Virus record (IMG/VR): IMGVR_UViG_3300032053_000048
Location: 1-64,000 of that record
Direction: 5' to 3' (one strand)
Origin: a virus
DNA length: 64,000 nt
Shown: one piece after another, positions 13,401 through 55,627 of the stretch
Layout of the letters: every line of letters begins with the position of its first letter
Position numbering within the stretch: the first letter of the stretch is position 1
Position numbers and translations under genes: made by a program
The notes under the pieces: model-generated
Seen by the model: the letters and a program-made list of their open reading frames with translations, nothing else
Told to the model about the DNA's origin: nothing
Databases searched by the model: none

Positions 13401-16400
13401 GGAATTCTTCTCGATAACTGGAACAAGGGTCAGACTAAAGGAGTATGGATTTCTATAAATGATAAAGCTCACAGAGATAGCCCTGACTACTGGACAGCAG
13501 TTGGAGGCGATGAAAAGGTATTGATCAAGACTACTCCCAATGCTAAAGGACCTATAAAGATCGAGAAAGGGATATTATTAACAACCTACGGGACCGTAAG
13601 ATCAAAATTTAATCCTAAACTCCGAAGGACCGAGGATGATCTGAAAAACTATTTCTCAGAACCATTTACAAGCAGGGTTCAGCAACTTGCTCAGTGGCTT
13701 GGCAGGGATTTCAGTGGTGTGATAGTTTTTGATGAAAGTCACAATATGGCAAATGCCATATCAACAAGGGGAACGAGGGGTCGTAAGAAACCATCAAATA
13801 CTGCTCTTGCTGGTATGGAATTACAACGTATGCTACCCAATGCAAAGATCATCTATTCATCAGCAACAGGAGCAACGGAGGTTTCAAATCTTGTGTACGC
13901 TCAAAGATTAGGACTTTGGGGTGACGGTACTGCCTTTGAGAAAGCAGATGATTTCATAAATGCCGTTGATACAGCCGGGGTATCCGGTATGGAGATAATA
14001 TCAAAGGACCTCAAATCAATGGGACTCTATACTGCTAAGACTCTTTCTTTTGATGGGGTTGAATATGACACCCTCAGGCATAATCTGGTCCCTGCACAGG
14101 TGAACCTTTATAACCAGGTAGCCGATGCCTGGCAGATAGTATTAAAAAATATTAATGCTGCCATAGAGGTTAATGAAACAAGCAAGGAAGCCAAGGCTGC
14201 AGCAATGTCAGCTTTTTGGGGTGCTCATCAGAGGTTCTTTGGCCAGATCATCAATGCGATGCAGATGCCGACTCTCATCAAGGATATTCAGAAGAATCTT
14301 GATGAAGGTAATGCGGTTGTAGTTCAGCTTGTGAATACAAATGAGATGCAACTCGAAAGAGCCCTCGCAGAAGCAAGAGAGGAATCAGAAGGAGAACTCG
14401 ATCTTGAGGACCTGGACCTTTCGCCCAAAAGTATAATTCTGGATTTTCTTTATAATAGTTTTCCGGTCCAGCAATTTCAGGAAGCAACCGATCAGGATGG
14501 GAATATAGTCAAAGTTCCGGTTATAGATTCCGAAGGTAAACCAGTTCTGAATCCTGAATCAGTTGCGAAACGAGACAAATTACTTGAGGAACTTGATAAG
14601 TCAATAGTTCTTCCAGAGGCACCTATCGATATGTTATTGAATACATTTGGTATTGATAATGTTGCGGAGGCTACAGGAAGGGGAAAGAGAGTTGTTCTTA
14701 AACCAGGCAAGGATGGTAAATTAACCAAACAGGAAGAAACCAGGACTGACTCTAATGTCAAACAGGACGTAAATAACTTCATGGATGGTGAGAAGAATAT
14801 GTTAATATTCTCTAAAGCCGGAGGAACAGGAGCATCTTATCACTCTGATCTTTCAAGAAAGAATCAGAAAAGACGTGTTCATTATGTTTTGCAGGCCGGA
14901 TGGCAGGCTGATGCAGCAATCCAGGGATTTGGCCGTAGTCACCGAAGTAACCAACGAGTACCACCGCTATTTAAACTGGTGACTACCGATCTTAGGGCAC
15001 AAAGAAGATTTCTTTCGTCAATAGCTCGCAGACTGGAACAACTTGGGGCCCTTACTAAAGGCCAGAGAGATACCGGAGGTGCAGGAGTTCTTGACGGTTC
15101 CTATAATCTCGAAGGCCGTTATGCAAAACAGGCTCTTTTTGAATTCTATCAGGACGTTGAAAATGGCAGGGTCCCTGGAGTTGATATGGCTACCTTGGAA
15201 GATCAGATGGCACTTAAAATTTATCGGGAGGACCAAAGCGGAACAAGGGTTTATAACGAGAACGTTATCTTCAATACCAAACAGTTCTTGAATCGCCTGA
15301 TGTCCCTCAGGGTTGATCTCATGGATAAGGTTTTCGATGGGTTTATCAATAAACTTGATGAGGAGGTCAATGCTGCTATTCTGTCGGGGTCGTATGATGC
15401 AGGTATTGAAAATGTCAAGGCCGAAAAGATCAGAGTAGTTGACGAGCAACTAATATATACCGACCCGAGAACCAAAGGTAAAACCTATATAACAACCTTT
15501 GAACTTACGCTAAAGAACGACAAACGGGACTGGAAACGGATAATGGCTGAAACAGCAGCCTACGATCAGTTAGGCAGGTTTATGGGTTATTATCAGGAAA
15601 AAAACTCAGGTAAGATTTATGCTATGGTTCAGCAGAGGATAATGGATGCTGATGGCTCGACAGAGACAAAGATAAAAAGAATGAGTGTTATTGCTGATCA
15701 TCATATCGACTACAGAGAGCTCAGGGAGAAGTACAATGAACTGAAAAAAGATGTGGCTAAGGAAATATGGGATAAGGATTTTGCCGAATATCCTGATTTT
15801 CGTAACCGTACCGAAACTATTGTCAAGGGTCTCATCTTGCCGATCTGGAATCGACTACCAAACAATATCAGTGTCAAGAGATATATCGATGAAAAGGGAC
15901 AGGCTCATCTTGGCAGGTATTTTCCACCCAAGGATATACAGAGGATAGTCAAGGACTTTGAGGTAGCAAGTACTCAGAAATACTCACCGGAACAGATCAA
16001 GAAGATCGTGAAAGATGGTGGCATGGTCCGTATGGCTAACGGTTTTGAATTTACCAAGGGCAAATACCAGGGAATACCGGTGATAAAGATTGAGAATACA
16101 AGGTCATACAGAGATGGCGAAAGGCTTGAACGGTCTGGTGCAACTTTCGTTGTATCCAGTTCTATGACGATGGCTGGTGATTATTATATCTCAATGGACA
16201 AGGCCTCTGATGTGATCAGTGAGATAGAGAGGCTATTCGGAACTACAGTTGTTCATGCCGAGGACTCGGACGGTAACTTTATAATGGCTAAACCCGAGGG
16301 ACCGGCTTTCATGCGCAGGCCCAAGGACCTGAGGGGAGAACCTTCAATATGGGAAGACCCGAGATTTAAACGTTATGAACTGGCCCCGGGAGAATTCGCC

Positions 16401-19400
16401 GAAGGTCAGATGAAGGCACTTTTCGAGAGCGAGGTAATACGCAGGGCCAGGATAATGATGGCTCACTCCAATGTCAATATCAATGTTGTTAAGACAAAAG
16501 CCGATCTACCTCAGGAATTACAGGATTATGCGATAAGACAATTTGGAGATCTCTCCAGTAGCGAGATTCCTTCCGTATATGACCGTAAGAACAAGGTTAT
16601 CTACATCGTAGTCGAGGATACAAAAAGCATTTCCGATCTGACAAGTAATATGGCGCATGAGGTTGTTGCTCATTATGGACTTGAAAGATTACTTGGTAAA
16701 GACGCTTATCTCGATGTTCTGAAACTGACCTACCGGGGAATGTCACCGGTCGATGCTGTGGAGCTGGCAGCAAGGTACAAGGTTGACCCTGAGGACTGGA
16801 AGACGATAGCCGAGGAATACATAGGCGATACCGCAGGAGCCGGGAAGATGAACCCTTCATTATGGCAGAGAATAATAACCAAAATCAGGGAATGGATTCG
16901 TAAGTTGTTTAATATTCCAATGTCAAAGGCCGAGATCATTGTACTACTTAACAAGTCCCGGGAAGCCCTAAGACGCAACAAGTATGTTCCCGAACCAACA
17001 GAGGAGCAACTTGCAGGTGATTATATGAAGACTCTCACAGGGTTTGCAGCAAGAAAAGAACCTCAGCCTACCAAACACGCATACGGTATTAAGGTTAGCG
17101 GTTCTCAGACTCTTGAGACGGATATTGCAAAAGGTAACCAGGACTATCAGACCTATTTCGCAGCTGCTACGCCGGTAATAGGCAGTAAAGCTGTTCGCTG
17201 GATTGAGAGAGCAATGGTTAGGGCTGGATTCGATCAGGAGAATATTGTAAATTATCTTAATTCAAAGATACTCCGTTATAAAGGCGATGACAAACTGCAG
17301 AAACCCTTTATTGATGCTCTTGAATACGTTGAGGCTAATCCACCAATGAAACCAGAACCACTCTACCAGGTTATGATCGGAAAGGGCAAAACTCCTAATG
17401 ATCTTAACCTTATCGACAAGGACCATTCGGTTACAGAAGATAATATGGAGAGTATAATGAACCAGCTGGACGTGGAAGGTAAATTCGACCCCACGTTTAA
17501 CTATCGCAATATCCAAAGTGGAGCTGATCTATACCGCAAGATGGTTGGTATCTATGGAAGCGACCGGGAGGCATCGCTGGCTCTTTCCAGGGCAGGTATT
17601 GACGGAATGAGGTTTATTGAACAGGAAATGGGGAACGCTCAGCCATTTAAGGTCGATTCATATATCATTTTTGATAATACACCCATTGATGTACTTAACC
17701 AGATCGCTTTCAAGCGCAGGAATAAACCTGTATTTGCCGGGGAACATATAGCCAGGGCAGGCCAGAGATATACCCTGAAACAGACCAAGCGGAACTGGAA
17801 TAAGATTCTTACCGGGATGCGGGAGTTCATTCAGGATATGGACTTACCGATTCGTAAGTTTGAGGAGGAGGTACTTAAACGTGGAGGTTTCCAGACTAAT
17901 GAGATGAAGCCCTACCGGGATAAAAGCCTTACTTTTGGTCGCCAGGAAACTCTTTATAAGGAGTTCCTTAACCTTATGGAGGGAGTTACCGGAACCTCAG
18001 TCAAGATATCTCAGGCAACAGGACTGCCTATTGAGAATGTTCTGGCCTACACAATAGCCAAACACGCACCGGAGAGGAACTTATATCTTCGCACAAAAGA
18101 GTTCGATGAGATAATGAAGGTTGCCGACCCAAACCTAACCCAGGCAGAGATTGATGAGATAAAGGATTTTCTCGCTCAAAAAGACTACGCTGGTGTGATG
18201 CAGTTCGACACCGATGAGGCAGGTGTAGCACTCGGTAATTATGAATATCCTGATGAACTTGCGAAAGTCATTACTGATGAATTCGAGTCCGTTGTACCGG
18301 ATAAGATGACAAAGGAATTATGGTCAAATATCCGCAAGGCATCAACAAAAGTACTTGATTATTGGGAGATGGGAGAGCAGATTTCTCCTGAAATGAAGCA
18401 GGAATATCTCGACAGGTACAACTATTTCGTGCCACTCCGGGGCTGGAGGCATGGTTATGCCAAGTACCTCAGGTTTGTAAGGGGCCAGGGAGTTTCGAGA
18501 TCACTGATTCATGCCGAAGGTCGTCAATCTCTGGCAGACAACCCGTTTGTTTACCTTCAGGAAACAGCTTTCAAGGCTATTGGCGAGATGATAGATAACG
18601 AGGTTAAGACAGCAATGCTGAAGCTCATCATGCGTAACTTGTCGAGTTCAGAGCTCTACGATATGGTAACAATCAAAAAGCTTTATTATGTTGCCAATGA
18701 GCTACCTGATGGAACCTACGAATGGGAGCCGACTATTATACGGCCACCGCAGGCAATGTTTAATGCCGGAACCGCAACTATGAAAATCTATAATCAGCAT
18801 CACAGGCTCAGAACACCAGGACAGGCCAAGGAATCGGAGGTTATTGTACACCGGCCTAATGGTGATATTGTGATGATTTTCAAGGACCCGCAAATATCGG
18901 TCGCTCAGGCACTCAACAAGCGCAATTATATGTTCAAAAGCATCTTTGGAGGCATCCATGATGCCAGATCAATGAATGATGCTGTTATTCCATTGTCGTA
19001 CATGACAAACTTCCTGAAGGCCACAATGACATCATGGAACGTGGTTTTCCCGTTTACTAACTTCCTTCGTGATGCACCAGAGGCTGCCCTGACACAGCTC
19101 ATCAAAGGCGAGCATGGTCATAATGTAATCTTAAATTATCACAGAGCCTTCCCTTCATTAGTGAGATTTATGAGGGGTAAACTTAACCTAAATGACCCAA
19201 ATGACGTTGAGCTCCTTAACTTTTATCGTGCTGGTGGAGCAACGGGATTTACTCATCCAATGACTTCTGAGGACGCAGAAAGAAAGATGATGGTCAAAAT
19301 GGAGAGAATGTTAGGTCGGGGAACCGTAAGGGGAGCGGCTGTTCATTATGGACAAACCCTTGTTGAGGCAGTTTCGATGTGGAATCAGCTCTTTGAGGAT

Positions 19401-20714
19401 GCAACCAGGTTCTCGGTATATCTGACCAGCCGGGGTCTCGGAAAAACCATTGAGGATTCTGCCTATGATGCCAAGGAAGCTTCAATTAACATGAACCGTA
19501 AGGCAAAGTCCAGTAAGTTCTTTGATGCCATCTATGCTTTCTGGAATGTAGCATGGCAGAGTCTTCAGAAGAACTTTAAGCTCGCTAAGGATTTCCCGAA
19601 ACGTTTCTCCCAGGTTGCATTGGCATGGATGGTACTTGGATTTCTTGATTCACTGTTAAACTACTCAACTGATGATGAGGACGAGGAAAGCAAGTATTAT
19701 AATATCAATCCCTGGATGCGAGAGAACTACCTTATAATCCCGAACCTTCCTAAGATACTCTCTGGTGAACCTAAAGGACCGAAATATCTCAGCATCCCGT
19801 TACCTCATTTCTGGAGGGGATTCAAGAGTATTGGTTCGTTACTATTTGATGTTATCAATGGCCAGATCGAACCTGGTGAGGCAATAAGAAAGGCAATTAC
19901 GAACTTCGGAGCTGCTATGTCACCAATAGATATCGGAGGATTCTGGAGCGCAACAGGAGAATTCAGTATAGCCCCCTTGATTCCGACAGTGGCTAAACCG
20001 TTTTATGAGATTTCTCAAAACCGTAACTATATGGGATTTACTATTGCCCGGGAGCCTTTTGATAAACGTCAGGAGAAACTACTTGCTGAGGCACGTCTTG
20101 GTAAAGATAATGTAAACCCTGCAGCTAAGTTCTTTACTGATCTGTTGTTCCGTTGGGGCGGTGGAGATAATGCTACCAAGTTCTATACCGATGATATGGG
20201 TATGCGTAAGAAAGTCTGGTCTGAGAACCTTCCAAAGGGACTTATTAATCCCTCGTATGTTGAACATATCTTTAAAGGGGTTACTGGTGGTACTGGTACC
20301 GTTGTCAGTGATCTGATGACGACAATAGGACAGACCATTAATCCTGAGGAAGAAGTAAACTTCCGTAATGTACCATTCATTAACAGGTTCATCAGAATGA
20401 CCCCTGAATCAAAATGGAGGATAATGTCTGAATACTACAAGTTGAAGGAAGGAGTTACTGAGCATAAGGCCCTGAAGAAAGAATATAAGAAAAAGGCAGA
20501 GGCCGGACTTGGAGAGGAACAGATAGCCAAAACAGAAGGAAGCGCATATTACGAGACCTATCAGGATATTCTTGATAGTTATGATAAGGATATCAGCGAT
20601 ATGTCGGCTGAACTTGACTTCAAAGATACAGAAGGAACTAAGCCTATGTGGGACTTAATGCAGCAGTGCATCAATGATATAAAGGCCCTGAAACAAGAAT
20701 ATAAGGTCAAATAA
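4449..20714 (+). CDS. Giant polyvalent virion-ejected protein (DarB-like): ART, inorganic pyrophosphatase, N6-adenine MTase, Strawberry-notch SF2 helicase, zincin metallopeptidase, LPD38-like C-terminus
   Basis: 5421 aa. VYHGT...GFFFA...VYLDIKNP...DQIK (~7386-7990); PTEGQKEAGNYPKGH...DGDLLDVF...FDEHKVMLGF (~8090-8500); LEPSAGEG and NPPF (12294); GFFLGAGTGYGKGR, DESH, QGFGRSHRSNQ (~13350-14960); HEVVAHYGL (16656). Confidence 0.9.
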   Translation: MTVQDVEQNKPKTKSVLGLPSFADLDSYKKTGQFTPGADTYVQSEEDRLKEEEFQKKGALGKMWTGLQQFWYGNLAGLQYGGVELAPILTKIPAVALGARMLGKNRQEVEDALIASEVYKDKARENLDKANAIYGHGFWNEVGKAAPFVASALASGGLGLAGEAAGSVGMAATGTALRGAATLASEGTLGALLGSTYGSSLMESDMYEEMTGKQVPVFQKQADALVSTAAMMLAFRLAGSSVNKIGDAYSNVMKNVLRDNPGLTSSLVGRFIAETPGAAAKLMAIGKQSAAEGLKVGGGMGLMTLTDDFLKNLEKYPEDRLAFSEIVKNTVTSFKSGAFLGAMIGPVSAGIGEGYHYFRRKQNGVNLLQTADGKVYEKVADKDAETYTVIDKNLRPKDIKKSEVIDQVNMTKPELDQALDAYRTNSDALPKIEEGIYTNYAKKSAQDLARQITTFDDKGNAAIVFMTDKDGHTYFQKKLSMLSDGMYAIVGRVEKNPETGELAVKDQMVKITDQQGKMTNGWQISGTATPDEFVQRGVDAYRAKKGWIPGIPGEEPVKDDKTGMPLDPVTRQQQEDAARKVAKEGDKITYQGREFEVMGIGFDGSVKAVELKDGDPIGEYIEIKPDQVDQINDKKFKEPTEDLIPAEGAKVKPGTPVYLKDGVPVSKGEIKGVMSLATDLEQTAGYTWENDKELDKLKKKKFPDSVQNWFIDGKEVTPDEVRGAISVIRTLKDAARIKIQHDPELEKLLADKIALITPVEKPKEVTPKVTPAKVVTKEPGRAPGLEVPGGPQAGGASETAPPPVSEEFHGEGVWAGNKKAKPVSKDWKMTREEFWNLPENQKIYGKLTGKDKDAFLSLHKIAVEEAIKEGKPVPKEVLAEYPDLKPSEKYQLNDMTFDTKDELFEYLDENAVNENGTRKVDFLEHKAGLPEPNVIKAINEWSKKYPVTTKPIEEKPTEVTPEPIGISPENAVEELKTTPVYHGTFANFEKFDPEKLGTSTGAASAKQGFFFATNPTIAASYASKTRKRIDEIKPEMDKLHKEITDLTGDTWIQAAHKLIQLEVNKTPAYSPITNGKVRDILDKLTALEDELQSFDETWMNDQVELADEGNLKKVYLDIKNPFIKDYEGSDFRDEPYAKVIADAKEAGHDAVIFKNTFDGGDPAGNLYPTDVIVVFSADQIKTEPVSTDVIEGGLKSADEIAGEIEEARKDVEPAPTEGQKEAGNYPKGHISVLGMDISIETAKGGIRSGTDRSGKEWSIEMKNDYGHILGTEAADGDLLDVFIGEIKPDQNIYIIDQVRPGTKIFDEHKVMLGFDNGKVAKDTYLSNYEEGWTGFGAMSVMPIEQFKNWAFTKGTYTALGTKRLNQPLSKSILPRTSETEETEETEAPTGPTPAVIEGMAKIKEREKLDRQRAVQENKLFQEQKTRLLDDLIKAEDILLGKNKKFVREHESEYPDKMKDSMIVSQYEYKIEELPENIKAKLSKLGIRVKDGKLVIDIYKDGTVEVGDLRKAMEIIDKGFPKRITERRLLEGPSKPKGRQIRAIAESLGSLEEAQRRVKAAEQNIKEANTPGLKKIMQEYLDEAKTVLAEAKDIDYEGIALKTKISGDEEFLDLFERISDRIYFYDLNKAALYEIIEKNRPAELTVESVLPLIVQNRLDEKSQTLDERIKEVSDEIQNKESELTEKFGHKDGKGLRKPKNNREEYDLRYLNSAINRLIAELEDLETVKPKLNVKGKTEEPIRPAGPERGKGTEDIIPGGTETAPEPTPPKGPAPEFAGETVKYIPHDEWDKNLIKARMYAAKGGLFDPDELAILGKEHWTDLDYLVKAIKAKLGEPAFVGPPQWDELTKHLKAIPGMNTEAAKAYDIYFKNGTITDPQNFRIHLMSRVNPIITDYWVNHFQQLRKDYGPIEITADVIEKVTDMLQKQFLPQYKTMGELIQQINQENISQLMSGGRAGVLKPESEVKLEAWSRYINQFAKPTEFAGEKIETVQPQVSVKELSLTHRIPIGAEGYDYPNKALEPVIKRDVTAYAKEVGRVLGWEHETDKKGKIVYSHVNLPPAGGEATFKLFKPGSDIGIYVKIPYEPTEILPSGEYGSIYSIQGTLEKQGFGPILYRLTSRSTGKDNANHWIGVVDAGEMANQIRKLAESFEKATPEVIAEKPMTAEQKIIEQNKKTLPNMSIGRRGAIAYKSILKAIPILPQLKPGDYYRSGERGDAIMPFSIEAVPIEAGQRIFPDPDAYILTLAHTYEQMGDLMWDPRIDVAVYPAYGIVIPVYYTMSGLGIAREYVVDGKIDEKGMNDTFAFIPQWMNNIVAQGRSITGENKEKILPDLEYEQRPITDREIIKVPSAEDWTYTGGKVISIKDTPIGTEYKVRYDIPGKGSYTAAFYSDNKNLQIPEAFETDAELEAFRSSLVSDTKEPKSPQDRLVDMVKTELEAGQKITNTPQLVKIAEAAGMKIGEHYTDIKELYDIASLALNRYINEVGERFNPFRMDQAQAKNIVEELINLQDLLPTETQRSRTQVELQQYSTPPALAFLSNWIAEVGPGDTMLEPSAGEGNIAIFAKNTGARVVVNEYDQNRINLLKMLGFDKITKEDAKYVFAVNSLKSDKITVVVMNPPFSKDVALGGKMDLHGAEKHISGALKKLEPEGRLVAIVGKGMGFDSPTHREWWDKIKKGYNVKANILISGDAYAKKGTSFDNRLVVIDKTGETPQNAVILTGYAENYSDLTDLLAQIPNKVRNFERDENVTGYSKGKTAPVSRPGEPTGPGPATTDVGGIQRGDTGQPGPIDIRPAGDGKPDTGPSDINRQGGTQLAKPGGPGQVGGGISKTGTGGDSRKGKAGPGRGGIVRGNAGPTGGLPEQYKNKPGGEIPGRGISVVRLPKSEAHNLTNRGYDKYTPEITIEGAKDHPTPLVESSAMASVPLPETDYSPALAKSTVDSGALSSAQLEDIILAGNANEQILPSGERRGFFLGAGTGYGKGRTIAGILLDNWNKGQTKGVWISINDKAHRDSPDYWTAVGGDEKVLIKTTPNAKGPIKIEKGILLTTYGTVRSKFNPKLRRTEDDLKNYFSEPFTSRVQQLAQWLGRDFSGVIVFDESHNMANAISTRGTRGRKKPSNTALAGMELQRMLPNAKIIYSSATGATEVSNLVYAQRLGLWGDGTAFEKADDFINAVDTAGVSGMEIISKDLKSMGLYTAKTLSFDGVEYDTLRHNLVPAQVNLYNQVADAWQIVLKNINAAIEVNETSKEAKAAAMSAFWGAHQRFFGQIINAMQMPTLIKDIQKNLDEGNAVVVQLVNTNEMQLERALAEAREESEGELDLEDLDLSPKSIILDFLYNSFPVQQFQEATDQDGNIVKVPVIDSEGKPVLNPESVAKRDKLLEELDKSIVLPEAPIDMLLNTFGIDNVAEATGRGKRVVLKPGKDGKLTKQEETRTDSNVKQDVNNFMDGEKNMLIFSKAGGTGASYHSDLSRKNQKRRVHYVLQAGWQADAAIQGFGRSHRSNQRVPPLFKLVTTDLRAQRRFLSSIARRLEQLGALTKGQRDTGGAGVLDGSYNLEGRYAKQALFEFYQDVENGRVPGVDMATLEDQMALKIYREDQSGTRVYNENVIFNTKQFLNRLMSLRVDLMDKVFDGFINKLDEEVNAAILSGSYDAGIENVKAEKIRVVDEQLIYTDPRTKGKTYITTFELTLKNDKRDWKRIMAETAAYDQLGRFMGYYQEKNSGKIYAMVQQRIMDADGSTETKIKRMSVIADHHIDYRELREKYNELKKDVAKEIWDKDFAEYPDFRNRTETIVKGLILPIWNRLPNNISVKRYIDEKGQAHLGRYFPPKDIQRIVKDFEVASTQKYSPEQIKKIVKDGGMVRMANGFEFTKGKYQGIPVIKIENTRSYRDGERLERSGATFVVSSSMTMAGDYYISMDKASDVISEIERLFGTTVVHAEDSDGNFIMAKPEGPAFMRRPKDLRGEPSIWEDPRFKRYELAPGEFAEGQMKALFESEVIRRARIMMAHSNVNINVVKTKADLPQELQDYAIRQFGDLSSSEIPSVYDRKNKVIYIVVEDTKSISDLTSNMAHEVVAHYGLERLLGKDAYLDVLKLTYRGMSPVDAVELAARYKVDPEDWKTIAEEYIGDTAGAGKMNPSLWQRIITKIREWIRKLFNIPMSKAEIIVLLNKSREALRRNKYVPEPTEEQLAGDYMKTLTGFAARKEPQPTKHAYGIKVSGSQTLETDIAKGNQDYQTYFAAATPVIGSKAVRWIERAMVRAGFDQENIVNYLNSKILRYKGDDKLQKPFIDALEYVEANPPMKPEPLYQVMIGKGKTPNDLNLIDKDHSVTEDNMESIMNQLDVEGKFDPTFNYRNIQSGADLYRKMVGIYGSDREASLALSRAGIDGMRFIEQEMGNAQPFKVDSYIIFDNTPIDVLNQIAFKRRNKPVFAGEHIARAGQRYTLKQTKRNWNKILTGMREFIQDMDLPIRKFEEEVLKRGGFQTNEMKPYRDKSLTFGRQETLYKEFLNLMEGVTGTSVKISQATGLPIENVLAYTIAKHAPERNLYLRTKEFDEIMKVADPNLTQAEIDEIKDFLAQKDYAGVMQFDTDEAGVALGNYEYPDELAKVITDEFESVVPDKMTKELWSNIRKASTKVLDYWEMGEQISPEMKQEYLDRYNYFVPLRGWRHGYAKYLRFVRGQGVSRSLIHAEGRQSLADNPFVYLQETAFKAIGEMIDNEVKTAMLKLIMRNLSSSELYDMVTIKKLYYVANELPDGTYEWEPTIIRPPQAMFNAGTATMKIYNQHHRLRTPGQAKESEVIVHRPNGDIVMIFKDPQISVAQALNKRNYMFKSIFGGIHDARSMNDAVIPLSYMTNFLKATMTSWNVVFPFTNFLRDAPEAALTQLIKGEHGHNVILNYHRAFPSLVRFMRGKLNLNDPNDVELLNFYRAGGATGFTHPMTSEDAERKMMVKMERMLGRGTVRGAAVHYGQTLVEAVSMWNQLFEDATRFSVYLTSRGLGKTIEDSAYDAKEASINMNRKAKSSKFFDAIYAFWNVAWQSLQKNFKLAKDFPKRFSQVALAWMVLGFLDSLLNYSTDDEDEESKYYNINPWMRENYLIIPNLPKILSGEPKGPKYLSIPLPHFWRGFKSIGSLLFDVINGQIEPGEAIRKAITNFGAAMSPIDIGGFWSATGEFSIAPLIPTVAKPFYEISQNRNYMGFTIAREPFDKRQEKLLAEARLGKDNVNPAAKFFTDLLFRWGGGDNATKFYTDDMGMRKKVWSENLPKGLINPSYVEHIFKGVTGGTGTVVSDLMTTIGQTINPEEEVNFRNVPFINRFIRMTPESKWRIMSEYYKLKEGVTEHKALKKEYKKKAEAGLGEEQIAKTEGSAYYETYQDILDSYDKDISDMSAELDFKDTEGTKPMWDLMQQCINDIKALKQEYKVK
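9640..9789 (+). CDS. Candidate nested 49-aa basic helical protein (+1 frame of giant gene)
   Basis: MSKEKLKNQFDRLVLKEAREQKISYPEAQKRLLNRLRQKVLRQNSQEKL*, with an A-rich leader; coincides with a P/G/E-rich linker of the main frame. Confidence 0.45.
   Translation: MSKEKLKNQFDRLVLKEAREQKISYPEAQKRLLNRLRQKVLRQNSQEKL
12665..12672 (+). promoter_or_regulatory. Intragenic Bacteroidota -7 promoter element (TAATTTTG)
   Basis: Exact TAnnTTTG match 6 bp upstream of the nested ATG at 12679, within an AT-rich patch. A second TAATTTTG lies at 12592. Confidence 0.55.
12679..13080 (+). CDS. Nested/overprinted acidic helical protein (133 aa, +1 frame of giant gene)
   Basis: Amphipathic, protein-like sequence MKTLLDIAREKLHQF...; the main frame over the same span is low-complexity G/P/R; promoter box directly upstream. 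Confidence 0.65.
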   Translation: MKTLLDIAREKLHQFHAPANPLVPVLPQLMLVVFNEETPDNLDLSIYDRQEMENQIQDLLTSTDKAVLNWLNLVDQDRSEEVSQKLEQAGTVERVRQVLVEEVLFEAMQDRLEDFPNNTRISPAEKYRGEAFL

Positions 20715-20735: not shown

Positions 20736-22730
20736 ATGATACGGAACTTTACAGAAGAAACCATCAAATCGAGGACTCTCTCTAAGATCGGTGGTAAACA
20801 GGAGCGGATACTCATGCCGGAGATCAATAATGACAGGGTGGTATTGGCTGAGAATATGAAGCTGCTTGAGATTTGTCGAAATGACTGGCAAAGTCTAAGA
20901 GACGCCCGTACTCGCAGACGCAGGAACCGAAAGTACTATAGAGGCGATCAGTGGAGTGATCTTATCAAGGACCCGGATAAGAGTGACGGTAGTGTAATAA
21001 CTGAGGAAACCTACTTGAAAAAACAGGGGAAGGTCCCATTAAAACAGAATCAGATACGCCAGCTAGTTAAGAACCTTATTGGTCAATACCGGTCCAATCC
21101 ATCAAAGGCAGTTATTATAGCCAGGGACAGGGCAGATGCCAAGACAAGCGAGATGTTGACAAATGCCCTGCAAGCAGCAGAGACCGTCAATAAGGTTGCA
21201 AGTCTTGATCCGAGGTCTTTTGAGGAATTCAGTCTATCGGGTGCTCCAATCCAGAAACTGAGTTATCGGTACTGGAAGCAGTATAATCGTCCTGATCTCT
21301 TTATAGAAAACATCAATTTTAACCGTATATTCTTTAATTCAGACGTTCAGGATATAAGACTAACTGATCTTCGCAGGATTGGTGAGATAATCGATACTAC
21401 AATAGATGATATCGTTGCTACATTTGCGAAGAACAAGGCTGACGAAGCCTATATCAAACAACTCTACCGGACTATCATAACCGAGGATTTCCTTTCTCAG
21501 AGAGGACTTGACCCGACAAAGATGGACAGTCTTGACTTCTTTATTCCCCGGGACCCAAGCAAATGTAGGCTTATTGAGGTATGGGAACTAAAAGGCGAGT
21601 GGAGAACCAAGGCGCACGATCTCATGGATGGGTCCTACAGTATTGTCAAGGAATCATTGAAGGAAATAGCAAAGATTAACCGGCAACGTATTACAATGGG
21701 AACCAAACTTGGAGTTCCTGAGGAAGAAATAGCTCTGATCGAGGCCGAAGAAATATTCGAGCAGTTCTGGTATGTTAAGTTCCTTACTCCTTATGGTCAT
21801 GTACTATTTGAGTCAGAGACCCCTTATAAGCACGAATCACACCCTTATGCTCTGGTACTTTACCCTTTACTGGATGGCGAAGTTTGGGGATTTGTGGAAG
21901 ATATCATCGATCAGCAGAGGTATATCAACCGCCTGATCATTCTTATGGACTTTATCATCAATGCCTCAGCCAAAGGAGTACTGATGATACCGGAAGATTC
22001 AATACCTCCGGGAATGAGTGTCAAGCAGTTTGCTGATGAATGGACCAGGTTTAATGGTGTGATAGTATTCAAGCCAAACAAAATGGGAGTTCTCCCTACG
22101 CAGATACATAATAACTCTACGAACATAGGGATACATGAGATGCTGGCCCTGCAGATGCAGTTAATCACCCAAATTTCAGGTGTACATGAAGCCATGCAGG
22201 GACAAACAGCCAAGTCTGGTACTCCGGCTGCTCTATATGCTCAGGAAGCACAGAACGCATCCCTTAATACCCTGGACTATATTCAGACCTTTAACCAATT
22301 CATTCAGGATAGGGATACCAAGGCACTAAAGATCATCTGTCAGTATTATGACGAGCCGAGATTTCTGGCAGTTAGTGGTAAGTCATACTCCCAGGAAGCT
22401 AAGATGTGGGACCCGGAGAAAGCCCGGGATATCGAATTTGAATTAGTTGTGGTTGCTGGTAATGATACTCCTGTTTACCGGAGCATGATAGATCAGACCC
22501 TACTTGAGATGCTGAAAGCTCAGATGATCGATCTTGAGATGTATCTGGAAAGTTCTACTATGCCTTTTGCTGATCAACTACTGGAAAGCATAAGAAGTAA
22601 GAAACAGTCTGCAGAACAGGGACAGGCACCAGCTGTAAATCCGGGCGACCCGCTTGCTGTTGAGGCATCAAAAGCAAATCCTGATGTTATGTCAAGATTG
22701 ATTCCTGCTATGAACGGTCAGGCAGCATAA
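20736..22730 (+). CDS. Portal protein (P22-like)
   Basis: RKYYRGDQW, N-x-IRQLV, EDIIDQQRYINRL, QISGV...MQG and EAQNA motifs typical of podovirus portals; 664 aa. Confidence 0.9.
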   Translation: MIRNFTEETIKSRTLSKIGGKQERILMPEINNDRVVLAENMKLLEICRNDWQSLRDARTRRRRNRKYYRGDQWSDLIKDPDKSDGSVITEETYLKKQGKVPLKQNQIRQLVKNLIGQYRSNPSKAVIIARDRADAKTSEMLTNALQAAETVNKVASLDPRSFEEFSLSGAPIQKLSYRYWKQYNRPDLFIENINFNRIFFNSDVQDIRLTDLRRIGEIIDTTIDDIVATFAKNKADEAYIKQLYRTIITEDFLSQRGLDPTKMDSLDFFIPRDPSKCRLIEVWELKGEWRTKAHDLMDGSYSIVKESLKEIAKINRQRITMGTKLGVPEEEIALIEAEEIFEQFWYVKFLTPYGHVLFESETPYKHESHPYALVLYPLLDGEVWGFVEDIIDQQRYINRLIILMDFIINASAKGVLMIPEDSIPPGMSVKQFADEWTRFNGVIVFKPNKMGVLPTQIHNNSTNIGIHEMLALQMQLITQISGVHEAMQGQTAKSGTPAALYAQEAQNASLNTLDYIQTFNQFIQDRDTKALKIICQYYDEPRFLAVSGKSYSQEAKMWDPEKARDIEFELVVVAGNDTPVYRSMIDQTLLEMLKAQMIDLEMYLESSTMPFADQLLESIRSKKQSAEQGQAPAVNPGDPLAVEASKANPDVMSRLIPAMNGQAA

Positions 22731-23135
22731 CTAACCTCTAAGGTAAAGGTCAATGATTCTTTTACATTCGTCAAACCCAATCCCGAAATGGCATTTGAAG
22801 TTGCGGTCTGAGAGTTTGAGCATGAAGTCATTCTGTTGTGCAGTATGTTCATTAATGAACGCTCCATTTATCTTAAATATCTTGGAGTCCTCAGATTTGA
22901 TCTCAATGAACAGACCATGATACTTAAAATCCCTACTTGGCTCTATAATAAACAAATCAGGATAACCTTTGCCTCCTTGTATGGACTTGAGTATCCCTGA
23001 CTGTGTTTTCGTAAGATTTAATCCTGTAGGGTCAAAATGATACAGAACATTCGGATACTGCAGTTTTAGGTATAAGGCTATGTTCCGATAGATTTGTGTT
23101 TCCCGGTACTCTTTCATTTTGTAGGTATCCCCCAT
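22731..23135 (-). CDS. VRR-NUC / PD-(D/E)XK nuclease (resolvase-like)
   Basis: E..IY, GYPDLFI, GLFIEIK and Q..F...L motifs. Confidence 0.8.
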   Translation of the reverse strand: MGDTYKMKEYRETQIYRNIALYLKLQYPNVLYHFDPTGLNLTKTQSGILKSIQGGKGYPDLFIIEPSRDFKYHGLFIEIKSEDSKIFKINGAFINEHTAQQNDFMLKLSDRNFKCHFGIGFDECKRIIDLYLRG

Positions 23136-23410
23136 ATTGCATCAAATTGTCTCTGTTGTAGTTCGAGTTGAGCTGCTATATCAGCATCTTTCCATGTTAC
23201 ATGGCTTGCCGGACGTGGCCCTTTGTAAATAATGGACCCTGATCTTCTCCACTCGTCAATAAATTGTTTCAATGACATTCCATCTGGAATATCAACAACA
23301 TCGACTTTAAGAATACCGGTTGGGCCTCCCTGTCCTTCAAGTATCTTAGGAGTTACAGCTACGGCTGCAGCTCCGACAACCAGTTTTGAAAAGAATGATC
23401 TACGATTCAT
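23114..23410 (-). CDS. Small protein with twin-arginine signal and a portal-derived segment
   Basis: MNRRSFFSKLVVGAAAVAV. Its IPDGMSLKQFIDEWRR matches portal IPPGMSVKQFADEWTR. Confidence 0.7.
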   Translation of the reverse strand: MNRRSFFSKLVVGAAAVAVTPKILEGQGGPTGILKVDVVDIPDGMSLKQFIDEWRRSGSIIYKGPRPASHVTWKDADIAAQLELQQRQFDAIWGIPTK

Positions 23411-23855
23411 GGTTTAGTGATTTAAGTTCTTCTGTTTGTATGTTACTTACAGCCTCTATATAAGATTTGCGCTGTATTTCATTACTTGTTACTATAGCAA
23501 AACACTGTGATATCATGTGCTCGTAATCCCTGTACTTTGGAAAGTAAGGTATATTCTTATGCTTGAGTTTCTTTAAGCCTTCAGAATTAACCTCATCGAA
23601 TCCACCTGCTAAGTTACGAAGAATATAATAAGTCCGACCATCGGTTTTATTTCTCATCTTGGCCCGGTAAATAGCTCTATTGATAAGCTTTTCATCTCGC
23701 CTTACATTCCAGACAGATGTTTTAAAACCCCTCCATTCCTGCCAGTCTATCTTTAACCTGGTCCAGATATCCCTGAGGTATCCTGTTACTGCCAGAAATA
23801 CCACTAAAACGAGCAATACTGCTCCTGCGATGATGTAATAAACGTACTTATTCAT
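23400..23855 (-). CDS. Membrane-anchored basic hypothetical protein downstream of terL
   Basis: N-terminal TM helix (YYIIAGAVLLVLVVFLAVTG) followed by a basic domain (RAIYRAKMRNKTDGRTYYIL). Confidence 0.7.
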   Translation of the reverse strand: MNKYVYYIIAGAVLLVLVVFLAVTGYLRDIWTRLKIDWQEWRGFKTSVWNVRRDEKLINRAIYRAKMRNKTDGRTYYILRNLAGGFDEVNSEGLKKLKHKNIPYFPKYRDYEHMISQCFAIVTSNEIQRKSYIEAVSNIQTEELKSLNHES

Positions 23856-23864
23856 ATTTAGAGC

Positions 23865-25862
23865 TTATGAAAAACTTGCTTCTGATTGAACTTCTCTTTC
23901 CTTGCCTGGCTTATATTCCTCGACAATGATCGGCATATCCATGTATTTGAGTGCCATCCATACCCCTCCAGCTCTTGTGATAGCTATGTCATCGTGACTG
24001 CCCTCAACGGCACCAATAGAACCATCGTCTTTGTATTCCAATGTATCCATTTCGTCACAGGCTTTATCCCAACGCTCTAAATAAAGATCGTCTCTAAGGG
24101 CAGCATTATGAGTATTGATGATCAATGATTTCGTACCCGAGTTTGTATGGAATCCCCACTTAATAGGAGCTTTCTGTTTTATCTTTTCTGGGTCTGTTCG
24201 GGCAAAGAGATTATTGTAATACTCCGCAATCTCATCAAGTACAGTTACAAAGTGATCACCCTCCGTATCTTTCCGGGACCTCAGGGAATTAGTTTCTATT
24301 GCCAGCAGGCCCATTCCCCAAAATGAACCTAACTGTGCGCACTTCCAGGCAAAGATATCCTGATCAAGGTGCCCCCACCAGGTAGCAACAATTTCCGGTT
24401 TACCTCCTTCCATCATCCAGTATCTGTCAATAATAGTCAGACATGAGAAGTCTGAGCCGTCTGATCTGCCTCCGATGTCACCAAAGAGAGCGTACCTGTT
24501 CTTGATGTTAACTGTCAAATCCGGCAGGGCCCAAACAAAAAGACTACCCCTGCCATTCTCCTCCAACCTTAGATTTTTAAGACTGTCTGGACCTGTCTGA
24601 GCATCACCCATAATTTCGCCAGTGAACTCCGGCGCTTTACAGTTAACCCTTGCCTTGGCAACATATTCGGCCCGGAATACCCTGCGACCTGTTGATTGAA
24701 ATGCCTCAATATCATTTGACGGATATTCTGACTTCATTCGCCAGTCGTCATAGTTCTCACCATTCTTAAAGTCATAATACCACTTGATGCCTTCCAGGGT
24801 GGCCCCTGCCAGCCATAGGTATTTAGCGTAAGATTCCTTTGTTATGGCCCAAGTAATGAAGTCATACAGATCGGATAACTTGATCTTCTTCTGGTATCTC
24901 TCGATCTCGAACCATGCCACAAAGATCGGGATATATGAACTGGTACCTTTCTTGGCAGCCTGCCATTCCCTGTGAAAGAAATTACCGACTCCCTTGGCTG
25001 TAGATTCCATTACTATAAGGCTATTGGCTATTGTAGGAACTGTTCCTCTAAGTGTCTGAGCCAGGTCCTCTGCGGATTTCATAGCCGTTGATTTCCAGAG
25101 TCCAACCTCAGAAAGGTGCAGCATAGCAAAGTCGTATGATCTAAGATTCTCCGGTTCCTGGGCCGAACCAACTCCGACTATACAGTTCCGCTCCTTGATA
25201 ACCTTTGTCTTTGTCGAACCTTCGTAAGGTACAAATGTAATTCTACCGAATTCCTTAGGATAAAGATTCGCAAGTCTCTTATACATTCCCCGGATATGTT
25301 TCGACTGGTCCTCAACATCTGCAATAATAGCCGAGTGCCAGTTAGTTTCCTGAATTTGTTGCATCCAGGCCATGTATATTTCTACAAGTGTAGAACCTCC
25401 CCATTGACGTGCTTTCAAAAGAATTATCCGTATTGGCACACCCTCTATCCGCATCTTTTCAAGCTGCTTGAGGAGTTTTCGTTGCGCCTTATTAAGAACA
25501 AATGGGACCTCCTTTTTGGTAGTTTTGTGTTGAATCTTTGCACAGACATAAGCCCAAAATTCAAAGTCATATATGAACCTGATCTTGGTTAGTTCGTGCA
25601 TGAAGGTGGCGGTTGTTACCGGGTCCTCGGAATTCAGAGCTTTCTCTATTGAGCCGAGACGTTTGATCTTACGGACAATAGATTGCTCCATATACATTCT
25701 CTCCGGCAAAAAAAGTGAGTAATGGTTAGTATGGTAGAAGAAATCAACCTTAATGCGTTTAATAGGAGAACCAAGGCCTGTACCGGGATTATAGGGAGAG
25801 TTGAGTCGTTCCTTACGAAGGTCGTTTTCCTTTATAATATCTTCTATTTCTTCTTTCGACAT
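23865..25862 (-). CDS. terL: Terminase large subunit
   Basis: ILLKARQWGGST (Walker A), HLSEVG (Walker B), MESTAKGVGNFFH, nuclease motifs GDIGG...DFS and HDD. Confidence 0.93.
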   Translation of the reverse strand: MSKEEIEDIIKENDLRKERLNSPYNPGTGLGSPIKRIKVDFFYHTNHYSLFLPERMYMEQSIVRKIKRLGSIEKALNSEDPVTTATFMHELTKIRFIYDFEFWAYVCAKIQHKTTKKEVPFVLNKAQRKLLKQLEKMRIEGVPIRIILLKARQWGGSTLVEIYMAWMQQIQETNWHSAIIADVEDQSKHIRGMYKRLANLYPKEFGRITFVPYEGSTKTKVIKERNCIVGVGSAQEPENLRSYDFAMLHLSEVGLWKSTAMKSAEDLAQTLRGTVPTIANSLIVMESTAKGVGNFFHREWQAAKKGTSSYIPIFVAWFEIERYQKKIKLSDLYDFITWAITKESYAKYLWLAGATLEGIKWYYDFKNGENYDDWRMKSEYPSNDIEAFQSTGRRVFRAEYVAKARVNCKAPEFTGEIMGDAQTGPDSLKNLRLEENGRGSLFVWALPDLTVNIKNRYALFGDIGGRSDGSDFSCLTIIDRYWMMEGGKPEIVATWWGHLDQDIFAWKCAQLGSFWGMGLLAIETNSLRSRKDTEGDHFVTVLDEIAEYYNNLFARTDPEKIKQKAPIKWGFHTNSGTKSLIINTHNAALRDDLYLERWDKACDEMDTLEYKDDGSIGAVEGSHDDIAITRAGGVWMALKYMDMPIIVEEYKPGKEREVQSEASFS

Positions 25863-26183: not shown

Positions 26184-27173
26184 ATGGGAGAAGGTGGAAG
26201 TTCATCAGGTGCATCAGCAGGTTCAGGCGCAGTAGCAGCAGCAACCAGCGAGGGTGCAGTGGCAACCTCTGATGGTGCAAAATCATCAAAAGAGGGAGTA
26301 TCAGAAGGAACAAAAGAGGCCTCGCCGGAGGCAAAGACTGAGAAAGTGGGTGCGGTTATAGATGCCAAACCTGTGACTGTCGAGGAAGTCAAAGACAAAT
26401 CGACTATAAACAAAGATGCTGTTGAAAAACCAAAACACAAACACGCCGAGAGGCTTGCCAAGGCATATCCAGATCGTCAGTTCTCTGGCGATGAAGATTA
26501 CGATAAAGCTCTTGACGAACATCTCAGTGATCTTGAAGGATACAGGGAGCGAGGTACGAAAGCAAATGCTCAACTCGTTCAGCTCTTTGATGCTGAACCC
26601 TGGGTGGCTGATCTTGTAAGGTCAATGATCAATGGTGAATCAGGCAGGGTAGCAATATCAAGACATTTCAGTGCTGAGGATTTTATATCGGAGCCGGGAG
26701 ATGAGGACCATGAAGCTCTTGAAAAGAACAAGAAGGAAAGAGCCGAAAGGATTGAGAAATCAAACAAGTTCAATCAGCAGTTTAATGAGAACGTTGAGTT
26801 TTCAACAAAGACTATTGATGAGTTTGCTAAGGAAAATAACCTGAAACCGGAGGAAGCTCAGAAGTTCTTTGATGATTTTGATTTAATATTGGCTGACATA
26901 TATGCCGGTAAGATCACCAAAGAGACACTTACAAAGATTATGAGGGCAGTTAAGCATGATGAGGCTGTTCAGGCAGCAAAGGAAGAAGGAGAGATAAAAG
27001 GCCGAAATGAGAAGATTACTATTGAGAAAGAGAAGGAATCAGCTATTAAAGAAAAAACAGATGGCCTTCCGGTGTTAGGAAAGACTGGTGAGGAAAGCAA
27101 GGAAGAAGAAGTAAGGCCTGTAAGCAAGATCGACCAGATTCTTGAGAATACCAAGCGAAGAACAAATTTTTAG
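26184..27173 (+). CDS. Putative capsid scaffolding protein
   Basis: Disordered N-terminus and charged helical body, immediately upstream of the capsid gene. Confidence 0.7.
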   Translation: MGEGGSSSGASAGSGAVAAATSEGAVATSDGAKSSKEGVSEGTKEASPEAKTEKVGAVIDAKPVTVEEVKDKSTINKDAVEKPKHKHAERLAKAYPDRQFSGDEDYDKALDEHLSDLEGYRERGTKANAQLVQLFDAEPWVADLVRSMINGESGRVAISRHFSAEDFISEPGDEDHEALEKNKKERAERIEKSNKFNQQFNENVEFSTKTIDEFAKENNLKPEEAQKFFDDFDLILADIYAGKITKETLTKIMRAVKHDEAVQAAKEEGEIKGRNEKITIEKEKESAIKEKTDGLPVLGKTGEESKEEEVRPVSKIDQILENTKRRTNF

Positions 27174-27210: not shown

Positions 27211-28596
27211 ATGAAGAAGAACCTTTTTTACTACGGGTCCAAAATATTAGGGGTGACATTTATCTGCGCCCTGATTTTCATATTTAATGGACTACTGGCC
27301 ATTGGGTCAGGGATTGCTTATGCTACCGTTACCGGAGCTGTCGTTGATGGAACCGCTGTATCGGTGGAGAAAGTGAAAGCCGGTTCTACTATTGACAGGG
27401 ATTATGTGAGCAAGAAGATTACGGAGATGCGCCCCGCAGCCACTCCTCTTGATACAATCCTTAGATCGATAGAGAACCAGGTAAGTGTCAGTTCGTTTAA
27501 GACAGAGTTTTACGCTGTTTCATCCAGGGAACTTATTGATACCGTTAATACAGCATATACCTATGCTGGCGATGGTGTAACAAGTTACGACCTGATTGTT
27601 AATAACGTAACTGCATGGACTGATGATGATACTTGTGTATTCCCCGGGCTTGTCGGCGCAACGGTCGGCTCAGGTACTGGTGATGGCAAGGACCTTGTTT
27701 GTTTTGTAGTCTCCCGTAACGTATCCGCAAACACTATTAAGATTCAGCCTATTAATAGTCAGTTCGGTACTGGTGCCAATGCTGCCAAGGTTGTATTACC
27801 TGCAGCAGGAATCGCAATCAACCAGACTATCGTTAGGATGGGAACCTGTAAGAACGAACTTGATGCTCAGACTGCAGCTTATGGTATCGTTCCTGTAAAA
27901 GCTTATAACTACCTTCAGATATTCATGGCACAGGCCGAAGAAGGTACATTCCAGAGACTGCATGAGAAAGAAGTTGATTTCTCGTTCTCTGACTATGAAG
28001 CTCAGAACATCTATGACATGAGAGCCCGTATGGAGTATTCATTCCTGTTCGGTGTTCGTGGATTGTTCTATGATGTTACCAACAACAAACAGCGCTATAT
28101 GACTGGTGGTATTACAAGATCAATTACCACAGCTCTTGAGTATGGCGTAGGTTCCGGTGACAGGACCATTGATAATCCAACGGTTATCAACTGGACCAAA
28201 TCAATATTCACCGGGAACTCAGGAAGTGACCGTAGGATTATGTTCATGGGTAATGCTTTTGCTGCCTACATGATGGGTGCTGATACAGTTCAGCGTCAGA
28301 TCGATGCCAAGAAAACCGAAAGGGTTTATGGTATCACATTCAATCTTGTTGAGACTAACTTTGGTCAGTTGCTTTGTAAACATCACAACCTGCTTGATAT
28401 TGCCGGTTGGGGAGAGAAAGCAATCGTTATCGACCTTAACTATCTTGAGAAACATACATGGAAGCCGATGGCAATTCGTGAACTCGACCTTCTTAGTTCA
28501 GGAACACGTAATGTAAAGGCTACAGTTATCGAAGAAACAACCGGACCTGTTTTAAGGTATCCGAGTGTTCATGGAATAATTAGTCCTAAAGCCTAA
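27211..28596 (+). CDS. Major capsid protein (SU10/DUF5309-like HK97 fold) with hydrophobic N-terminal leader
   Basis: ATG at 27211 after an A/T-rich leader. Motifs RPAATPLD, YNYLQIF, MEYSFLFG, RYMTGGI and ETNFGQL; followed by a terminator. Confidence 0.85.
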   Translation: MKKNLFYYGSKILGVTFICALIFIFNGLLAIGSGIAYATVTGAVVDGTAVSVEKVKAGSTIDRDYVSKKITEMRPAATPLDTILRSIENQVSVSSFKTEFYAVSSRELIDTVNTAYTYAGDGVTSYDLIVNNVTAWTDDDTCVFPGLVGATVGSGTGDGKDLVCFVVSRNVSANTIKIQPINSQFGTGANAAKVVLPAAGIAINQTIVRMGTCKNELDAQTAAYGIVPVKAYNYLQIFMAQAEEGTFQRLHEKEVDFSFSDYEAQNIYDMRARMEYSFLFGVRGLFYDVTNNKQRYMTGGITRSITTALEYGVGSGDRTIDNPTVINWTKSIFTGNSGSDRRIMFMGNAFAAYMMGADTVQRQIDAKKTERVYGITFNLVETNFGQLLCKHHNLLDIAGWGEKAIVIDLNYLEKHTWKPMAIRELDLLSSGTRNVKATVIEETTGPVLRYPSVHGIISPKA

Positions 28597-40638: not shown

Positions 40639-40639
40639 T

Positions 40640-40870
40640 ATGAGATCAAAACTATTTAAACTCAATGCCAAGGACTTTATTAAAGGTCTGATTGTAGCAG
40701 TTCTTACTGCAGTAATCACGTTTGCTTATGAAGCCATACAGACCGGAGAACTTTTCAGTATGGTAACTCTCAAGAAGATGGGGATGGTAGCTCTTGGAGC
40801 TTTACTTGCCTATCTGATTAAGAACTTACTGACGAATTCTCAGGACCAACCTTTGACTCCAGAGGGATGA
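40640..40870 (+). CDS. Holin
   Basis: 76 aa with two TM helices, between the endolysin and spanin. Confidence 0.75.
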   Translation: MRSKLFKLNAKDFIKGLIVAVLTAVITFAYEAIQTGELFSMVTLKKMGMVALGALLAYLIKNLLTNSQDQPLTPEG

Positions 40871-53632: not shown

Positions 53633-53665
53633 TCTGTTTTGGTTTTATTAGACCATCACGATAGG

Positions 53666-54166: not shown

Positions 54167-54209
54167 CTCTCTCTTTATTTAGTTATTTGCTTTAGCGGGT
54201 TCATTAGTA

Positions 54210-54488: not shown

Positions 54489-54489
54489 G

Positions 54490-55401: not shown

Positions 55402-55411
55402 CTCTCTTTAT

Positions 55412-55606: not shown

Positions 55607-55627
55607 CTTACCGGTTTTTAAGGATAA

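Follow-up and report, generated by a model that had tools for sequence, protein, structure and literature searches.

Major capsid proteins of tailed phages are textbook cytoplasmic proteins. The capsid protein of HK97 begins with the delta domain, a soluble scaffold-like domain that is cut off by the phage's own prohead protease, and P22-type assembly is not known to need cleavage of the capsid protein. According to PMC5744158, the capsid and scaffold proteins of Staphylococcus phage 80alpha have their N-termini trimmed by a host protease, Prp. PMC3185693 describes the T4 head as assembling on the inner membrane and the coat protein of filamentous phages as being a membrane protein first, and PMC10367356 reports predicted signal peptides on the major capsid proteins of Porphyromonas gingivalis phages. 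A literature search that covered sources other than subscription journals found nothing on a membrane leader or a rhomboid in tailed-phage capsid assembly, save one sentence in PMC10367356; within the same scope no report turned up of a capsid leader in a tailed phage that lacks a protease, or of phage rhomboids in connection with capsids.

The window analysed here covers the first 64,000 bases of a virus record that is 72,897 bp long, has direct terminal repeats and is rated complete. Since its three cultured relatives, BF1-TP2, BS-TP4 and BKO1-TP3, infect Bacteroides, and since 10 of the 15 MAG contigs bearing a homologue are labelled Bacteroidota (contigs of 1.3 Mb and 222 kb among them), we infer that the host belongs to the phylum Bacteroidota. 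The capsid gene sits in a head module together with portal, terminase and scaffold genes. A P22-type portal protein is encoded on the plus strand at 20736..22730 (PF16510, E 4.6e-43; phrog_156, E 3e-74). The large terminase gene, terL, lies on the minus strand at 23865..25862 (phrog_2, E 2.5e-17) and is divergent from the scaffold and capsid-protein genes. Directly downstream of terL, also on the minus strand, 23400..23855 encodes a 151-aa protein with one N-terminal transmembrane segment (19-residue Kyte-Doolittle mean, KD19, of 2.87 over residues 5-23); tblastn matched it in 39 loci, each time adjoining terL, and searches of the Pfam and PHROG families found none to which it belongs. A likeness by eye to a protein of phage BS-TP4 was dropped at a BLASTP E of 45, and any part of the 151-aa protein in the mechanism discussed below is conjectural. 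Tail-fibre-like genes and a gene for a 5,421-aa polyvalent protein make up the other surroundings of the capsid gene. Directly upstream of that gene, at 26184..27173 on the plus strand, is the gene for a Glu/Lys-rich scaffold-like protein of 329 aa (phrog_22323, E 1e-27) whose N-terminal 55 residues are of low complexity and which tblastn finds in 106 loci.

The capsid-protein gene (27211..28596, plus strand) begins with an ATG at 27211, 37 nt past the stop of the scaffold-like gene, and ends with a TAA at 28594-28596. Its 461-aa product matches Pfam SU10_MCP, PF17236, with 93.6 bits (cut-off 24.1) over residues 61-458, and phrog_26635 with an E of 3e-55 from residue 33 on; the Pfam family earlier went by the name DUF5309. 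We built an AlphaFold2 model on 55 homologues (pLDDT 77.7) and submitted it to Foldseek, where the top match was the capsid protein of Vibrio phage VP1 (9in6_M, E 2e-24), followed in order by crAss001, SU10 and HK97. Structural superposition with VIA-align gave a Z of 22.8 to VP1 (rmsd 4.8, 358 aligned), of 18.0 to SU10 (7z45_C) and of 15.9 to HK97 (1ohg_A). The protein is thus a major capsid protein of the SU10/HK97 fold, and profile searching put its family at no fewer than 1,445 clusters at 50% identity.

The first 45 codons of this gene, on the plus strand, specify a leader in four parts: a basic tip, a hydrophobic core of 14 residues, a break at N-G and a Gly/Ala-rich stretch of 18 residues. 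The tip, M1-K11 (27211..27243; MKKNLFYYGSK, with its charges at K2, K3 and K11), has K or R at position 2 in 51 of 55 aligned sequences and F at position 6 in 40. After it come the strongly hydrophobic core h1, I12-F25 (27244..27285; ILGVTFICALIFIF), and the polar break N26-G27 (27286..27291), where 40/55 sequences have S, N, T, H, D, Q or G in column 26 and distant homologues have D or E. The weakly hydrophobic, Gly/Ala-rich h2, L28-V45 (27292..27345; LLAIGSGIAYATVTGAVV), contains both candidate small-residue sites, L-L-A30 before I31 and A-Y-A38 before T39. The uncharged run extends over 34 residues, D46 being the first charge past K11. With a KD19 of 2.47, far above the usual Kyte-Doolittle transmembrane threshold of 1.6, the leader classifies as a membrane-type segment. 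The initial annotation had described a signal-peptide-like leader on the major capsid protein, laid out as a basic n-region, a long hydrophobic h-region and an AxA site at A36-Y37-A38 before a T. The leader itself stood up, as a real start of membrane type that is kept in all testable homologues, and so did its basic n-region; the single long h-region gave way to a hydrophobic part in two parts, and the AxA site had to be abandoned as not conserved, the A38 column of alignment A1 being a gap in 35/55. The same annotation had placed the next in-frame ATG inside the capsid fold; it is codon 73, within the conserved N-arm motif MRPAATPLDT (M73-T82; 27427..27456, plus strand), of which P75, P79 and T82 are invariant or nearly so in alignment A1.

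Leader conservation in homologues, which had been proposed as a check, was examined in two samples. A word-index search supplied the best 120 of 161 homologues, and in 113 of the 120 the N-arm anchor is preceded by 40 residues or more. Among the matches listed, KD19 reaches 1.6 or more in 113/113 and 2.0 or more in 108/113. Within the same listed matches the net charge of the N-flank has a median of +3 (at least +2 in 106/113), the uncharged run a median of 37 residues (at least 30 in 101/113), and the first charged residue past the run is acidic in 112/113. The two halves of the run differ across these 113 listed homologues: the first has a median Kyte-Doolittle value of 2.32 and a G/A/S/T fraction of 0.32, the second 1.62 and 0.57. 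Of the remaining seven of the 120, four are short or truncated, and three are full-length proteins that the anchor pattern missed but whose leaders are visible in their sequences. The second sample, the capsid ORFs of 82 related loci at 27-82% identity, has the same kind of start in 82/82.

Separately, about 10 of 148 representatives were listed as lacking a hydrophobic start (for example P0174, P0227, P0231, P0240, P0245 and P0246). Every IMG/VR relative of P0227, however, has a leader, and P0240 has as its nearest cultured relatives the three Bacteroides phages already named, which are leader-bearing too; we base no conclusion on these representatives.

Comparison of the window with its four closest relatives gave a pN/pS of 0.36 for codons 2-39, against 0.19 for the body, at a saturated pS of about 0.72. 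GTG codons occur at positions 15, 52, 55 and 66, and the only possible starts conserved across the five closest genomes are ATG1, GTG66 and ATG73. Conservation of the protein already begins at residue 42, well before codon 66, which makes ATG1 the sole conserved start that precedes all of the conserved protein; ATG1, together with the A/T-rich leader that follows closely on the scaffold stop, is itself conserved in 12/12 loci listed. Because the hydrophobic start recurs in 113/113 of the listed homologues and 82/82 loci, because pN/pS is 0.36 at saturated pS and because ATG1 is conserved, the leader is real and under selection, translated and family-wide among the relatives sampled.

The structural comparison shows where the leader lies with respect to the fold. 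In the VIA alignment, residue 5 of VP1 and residue 5 of SU10 both pair with residue 45 of our model, and residue 104 of mature HK97, which we take to be the first residue of gp5 after removal of the delta domain, pairs with residue 47. The AlphaFold2 model draws one helix over residues 5-36, and pLDDT is below 50 for residues 32-49. Since the solved capsids align only from residue 45-47, the leader falls outside the HK97 fold, where a pro-segment would be; it is an add-on before the N-arm, at the place of the removable delta domain of HK97. An N-terminal extension ahead of the N-arm is likewise what an HK97-type pro-capsid protein has.

We compared the leader with several kinds of membrane signal. 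A basic n-region and a hydrophobic h-region are both present, as in a Sec/signal peptidase I signal. For a short polar c-region with small residues at -3 and -1 there are two candidate sites, at A30 and A38, and the 34-residue uncharged run (family median 37) is far longer than that of a usual signal peptide. The conserved small residues cluster in the middle of the run: A30 is A in 26/55, G32 is G or A in 43/55, G34 is G, A or S in 49/55 and G42 is G in 40/55, and S33 is also conserved. Of these, G32, S33, G34 and G42 are predicted to weaken a membrane helix in the manner of rhomboid substrates. Compared with a signal-anchor-release (SAR) sequence, the second half of the run has a G/A/S/T fraction of 0.57 and a Kyte-Doolittle value of 1.62, and the first half is strongly hydrophobic. 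PMC5837995, and also PMC10367356, states that most Bacteroidetes signal peptidase I substrates expose a Gln at +1. Here, of 2,645 candidate (-3,-1) sites only 22, spread over 21 of 244 proteins, have Q at +1, and because this Q-rule fails the leader is not an ordinary host secretory signal. Its charges are basic on the N side and acidic after the run, with no basic residue for 30-odd residues.

By the usual rules, a leader built in this way would act as an export signal and would place the capsid body in the periplasm. This creates the central paradox of the locus, since a capsid body in the periplasm would meet a terminase that has no ATP there. A transmembrane hairpin whose second helix is a genuine stop-transfer segment was considered and is weakened, because the residue past the run is acidic rather than basic in 112/113 among the matches listed; we kept the hairpin idea only in a variant in which the leader forms a loop in the channel.

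The initial annotation had reported no recognisable prohead protease in the window, and our searches agree and extend this to the whole genome: among the ORFs of the complete 72.9-kb sequence, Pfam and PHROGs revealed no prohead protease, signal peptidase or other recognisable peptidase except a RadC-type JAB protein. That protein, encoded among the early genes beyond the window, is the only peptidase-like fold of the genome. Pfam PF01694 (rhomboid) gave 0 candidates in the complete genome, an ORF scan of the same sequence found no real multi-span membrane ORF, and an HMM that we made from five phage rhomboids and ran with --max over 3,748 stop-to-stop ORFs returned a best E of 2.2 in this genome. 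Multi-span 'ORFs' seen in loci of the relatives lie on the strand opposite the scaffold genes, and we regard them as spurious. In the control, Bacteroides thetaiotaomicron, a host rhomboid is present. Release by a phage peptidase, one of the two routes put forward at first, is hence no longer tenable for this genome as far as recognisable families go, which by inference leaves a host enzyme as the only candidate peptidase.

Relatives of the phage do carry a rhomboid. The capsid proteins of two cultured phages, BF1-TP2 (PQ571263) and BS-TP4 (PQ571277), are 31-33% identical and leader-bearing, and between terL and the scaffold gene both genomes encode a protein of 154-171 aa that exceeds the PF01694 cut-off, at 24.9 and 35.3 bits. 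We surveyed the records behind 70 related loci, many of which are fragments in which the slot beside terL is nevertheless covered in most loci, and 0/40 plus 5/30 scored over the cut-off. The seven rhomboid-bearing records are BF1-TP2, BS-TP4, L023, L024, L086, L087 and L095, and in 7/7 the rhomboid gene lies 1.3-2 kb upstream of the leader-bearing capsid-protein gene. Among records at least 80% complete, a rhomboid is present in G054, G063, G069 and the two cultured phage genomes and absent from sixteen, the window's own genome included. A quick maximum-likelihood tree of the capsid bodies with their leaders cut off (73 rows, arbitrary root, sampling centred on the relatives of the window) placed all rhomboid-bearing rows in one clade of 8 rows (SH-aLRT 99), made up of six with the rhomboid and two fragments in which the slot is uncovered; the window falls in another supported clade of 26 rows that contains no rhomboid. 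Within the limits of a quick tree and of this sampling, the leader is common to the whole family and the phage rhomboid is confined to a single branch. Because it is absent here and from every sampled record outside the rhomboid clade, the phage rhomboid is not the general enzyme of the family, and because a complete genome has the leader and neither a rhomboid nor a known protease, the leader is not explicable by it. The occurrence of the leader without a rhomboid narrows the possible mechanisms, and either a host enzyme or no cleavage at all must be considered.

The most likely explanation, to which we assign a probability of roughly 45%, is that the leader is a membrane tether and pro-segment cut near the tip of a loop by a host peptidase. 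We infer membrane tethering and cleavage of the capsid subunit as follows. The basic tip and the 14-residue core would bring the new subunit to the cytoplasmic membrane, where the leader would insert as a loop or hairpin, its N-terminus and the capsid body both remaining cytoplasmic. The outer tip of the loop would hold the N-G break as well as the small residues conserved at A30 and G32-S-G34, and the uncharged, Gly/Ala-rich second half would be the return limb. A subunit held in this manner might be barred from premature assembly, or might be concentrated at an assembly site on the membrane. A membrane peptidase with an outward-facing active site would then cut near the tip, and the weak return limb would slide back and free the body. 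Because the complete genome lacks a recognisable protease, the enzyme would be the host's, either signal peptidase I or a rhomboid of the GlpG type. The freed body would assemble with the separate scaffold protein around the P22-type portal.

This tether would account for the two-part run of about 37 residues, for the small residues in its middle, for the uncharged return limb and for the missing phage enzyme, and it draws support from the seven relatives that have a rhomboid, and with it membrane proteolysis, in their head-gene set. The acidic residue that follows the run and the failure of the Q-rule speak against its simple versions, and the reading as a whole is disfavoured by the fact that P22-type assembly is not known to need cleavage. 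A broader version can be drawn for the whole Bacteroidota short-tailed clade, in which HK97-fold subunits would all pass through a membrane loop, a host peptidase would cut the tip and the limb would return to the cytoplasm, with the rhomboid-carrying sister clade supplying its own enzyme for the same step; we consider that generalisation rather unlikely. Were it true, head assembly would be gated by the host membrane and would need no phage protease.

The absence of a recognisable protease and the P22-type portal can also be read differently, since systems with such a portal are not known to cleave their coat protein. The leader might never enter a membrane or be cut; it might instead be a hydrophobic assembly helix of the procapsid, a miniature stand-in for the delta domain that forms bundles beneath the capsomers or keeps the subunit on chaperones and is retained in the virion. 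Its location at the delta-domain position and the single AlphaFold2 helix over residues 5-36 suit such a role, which also sidesteps the topology paradox. On the other side, a basic tip, a 14-residue core and an acidic far flank form just the pattern that targeting machinery recognises and that cytoplasmic proteins usually avoid, yet it is kept in 113/113 among the matches listed; moreover, the phage has a separate scaffold gene, and an intramembrane protease is found among the head genes of relatives. We regard an uncut assembly helix as unlikely, though it fares best among the competitors of the membrane tether.

The charge pattern, with no basic residues after the run, would also fit a working export signal, by which some or all of the protein crosses the membrane for a role outside the virion (surface or vesicle display, or a decoy) and capsids form from the fraction that escapes export. 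The earlier name of the Pfam family, DUF5309, has been counted in its favour. We judge this quite improbable: Q is missing at +1, the leader is on the sole capsid gene of lytic-looking complete genomes, export would waste the most abundant virion protein on a large scale, and no conserved internal start is available for a leaderless form, GTG66 and ATG73 both falling within conserved sequence.

Some non-enveloped animal viruses deploy lytic peptides, and a leader that is cut and then packaged could similarly be a membrane-active peptide whose release at infection would assist a short-tailed phage in crossing the cell envelope. The head would contain hundreds of copies of a hydrophobic peptide and the portal is podovirus-like, but no autocatalytic site or protease is known in the phage, other candidate ejection proteins are present besides the 5,421-aa polyvalent protein, and the leader resembles a targeting signal, not an amphipathic lytic peptide. 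Such a function is very improbable.

That translation begins downstream, which would make the leader an annotation artefact, was raised in the initial annotation as a finding that would overturn it, as was a lack of the hydrophobic leader in homologues; the latter is contradicted by the 113 testable homologues. As to the former, GTG codons do exist at 15, 52, 55 and 66, but we rule it out for practical purposes, given that the frame is open and keeps its amino-acid character over saturated synonymous change (pN/pS 0.36), that ATG1 is conserved in 12/12 loci listed and that no conserved start precedes the conservation that begins at residue 42.

One further feature links the capsid protein to its scaffold. 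The first conserved stretch of the capsid protein past the leader, G42-K68 (27334..27414, plus strand), is copied in the scaffold-like protein as residues 56-82 (26349..26429, plus strand), where it sits behind the 55-residue low-complexity N-terminus; BLASTP aligned the two with 15/27 identical residues and an E of 5e-7. The copy is detectable in the window and in the loci L003, L026 and L028 (E 2e-8 to 4e-5) and visible in L027 (E 0.12), and it is absent in the other 60 of the 65 scaffold/capsid-protein pairs compared. A scaffold copy of the post-leader segment in this subclade is a new detail. Such a sharing of 27 residues is what one would expect if both proteins carried the same element for processing or docking; the parallel with the two trimmed proteins of 80alpha is suggestive only.

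Our analysis confirms a leader that is real and conserved: a secretion-type sequence is conserved on the main shell protein in every relative sampled. Head assembly may thus include a membrane stage that has escaped notice; otherwise a sequence of the targeting type serves another purpose, and the three cultured Bacteroides phages of the same family make the question directly testable.

Compared with described systems, the leader resembles HK97 gp5 in being an N-terminal extension before the N-arm and differs from it in that here the scaffold is a separate gene, no protease is recognisable and the segment is of membrane type. Phage 80alpha offers a precedent for processing by a host enzyme without a phage protease, and the N-terminal element that is processed there is common to its capsid and scaffold proteins; its counterpart here would be the 27-residue capsid/scaffold segment limited to five close genomes. 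The 80alpha leader, however, is short and soluble, and Prp is cytoplasmic. The pVIII procoat of filamentous phages and the T4 head (PMC3185693) parallel what we propose, the first as a coat protein that passes through a membrane stage and the second as the head of a tailed phage that is put together at a membrane. In contrast, pVIII is a single helix that is extruded without a terminase, and in T4 the anchor consists of the portal and a chaperone instead of the capsid protein. The Porphyromonas gingivalis phages are, like this one, Bacteroidota phages whose capsid proteins have predicted signal peptides; the authors of PMC10367356 expect cleavage by phage prohead proteases there, whereas this genome has no recognisable one. 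BF1-TP2 and BS-TP4 share the capsid family, the divergent arrangement of terL and the scaffold and capsid genes, and a basic and hydrophobic leader, and differ in the PF01694 rhomboid between terL and the scaffold gene, which neither this genome nor its 26-row clade has. The leaders of the rhomboid-paired phages also differ in length, mostly running to about 18 uncharged residues and then an Asp, as against 34 here.

In related phage genomes, mini-rhomboids of 154-212 aa are encoded at loci L086, L087, L095, L023, L024, L001 and L002. These proteins retain the H..HL..N motif, the G-x-S-G/A motif and a late histidine, and at all of these loci the capsid-protein gene lies 1.3-2 kb downstream of the mini-rhomboid gene. 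The copy in the related record G063 carries one in-frame TGA. In the complete genome of the phage studied here (G000), the only peptidase-like fold detected was that of a RadC-like JAB-domain protein (PF04002, E 1e-41), which is encoded outside the window, on the minus strand, at 68898-69533 of G000 (L121:5099-5734), among the early genes. An early-gene block within the window (52560-63800, minus strand) encodes DUF5131, an antirepressor with AntA plus KilAC domains, a metallo-beta-lactamase-fold protein, RecT and an SbcC-like AAA protein.

Comparison of the capsid protein with the scaffold-like product encoded directly upstream revealed a shared segment of 27 residues. Scaffold residues 56-82 (26349-26429, plus strand) are a copy of the capsid-protein segment following the leader (27334-27414, plus strand), with 56% identity and an E value of 5e-7, and this copy is restricted to the five closest genomes.

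Just upstream of the portal gene, a single ORF (4449-20714, plus strand) encodes a polyvalent protein of 5,421 aa with ART-PolyVal, inorganic pyrophosphatase, methyltransferase, DUF6908, Sbno-type helicase (AAA_34 plus Helicase_C_4) and LPD38 domains. The region 40045-41382 (plus strand) is likely a lysis cassette, in which an amidase gene (phrog_822) precedes two ORFs, the first of 76 aa with two membrane segments and the second of 171 aa with a membrane segment at each end.

Directly downstream of terL, a 151-aa protein (23400-23855, minus strand) carries a single membrane segment at its N-terminus, and a very basic domain comes after this segment. No family match was found for the protein; its position beside terL is conserved in 39 related loci by tblastn, and the head or packaging genes may have a membrane partner in it. 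Between portal and terL, a 98-aa ORF (23114-23410, minus strand), with weak tblastn relatives in 9 loci, begins with MNRRSFFSK and an Ala/Val-rich stretch, a predicted twin-arginine type signal. If this signal functions as such, the product would be an unusual case of a small phage protein exported by Tat.
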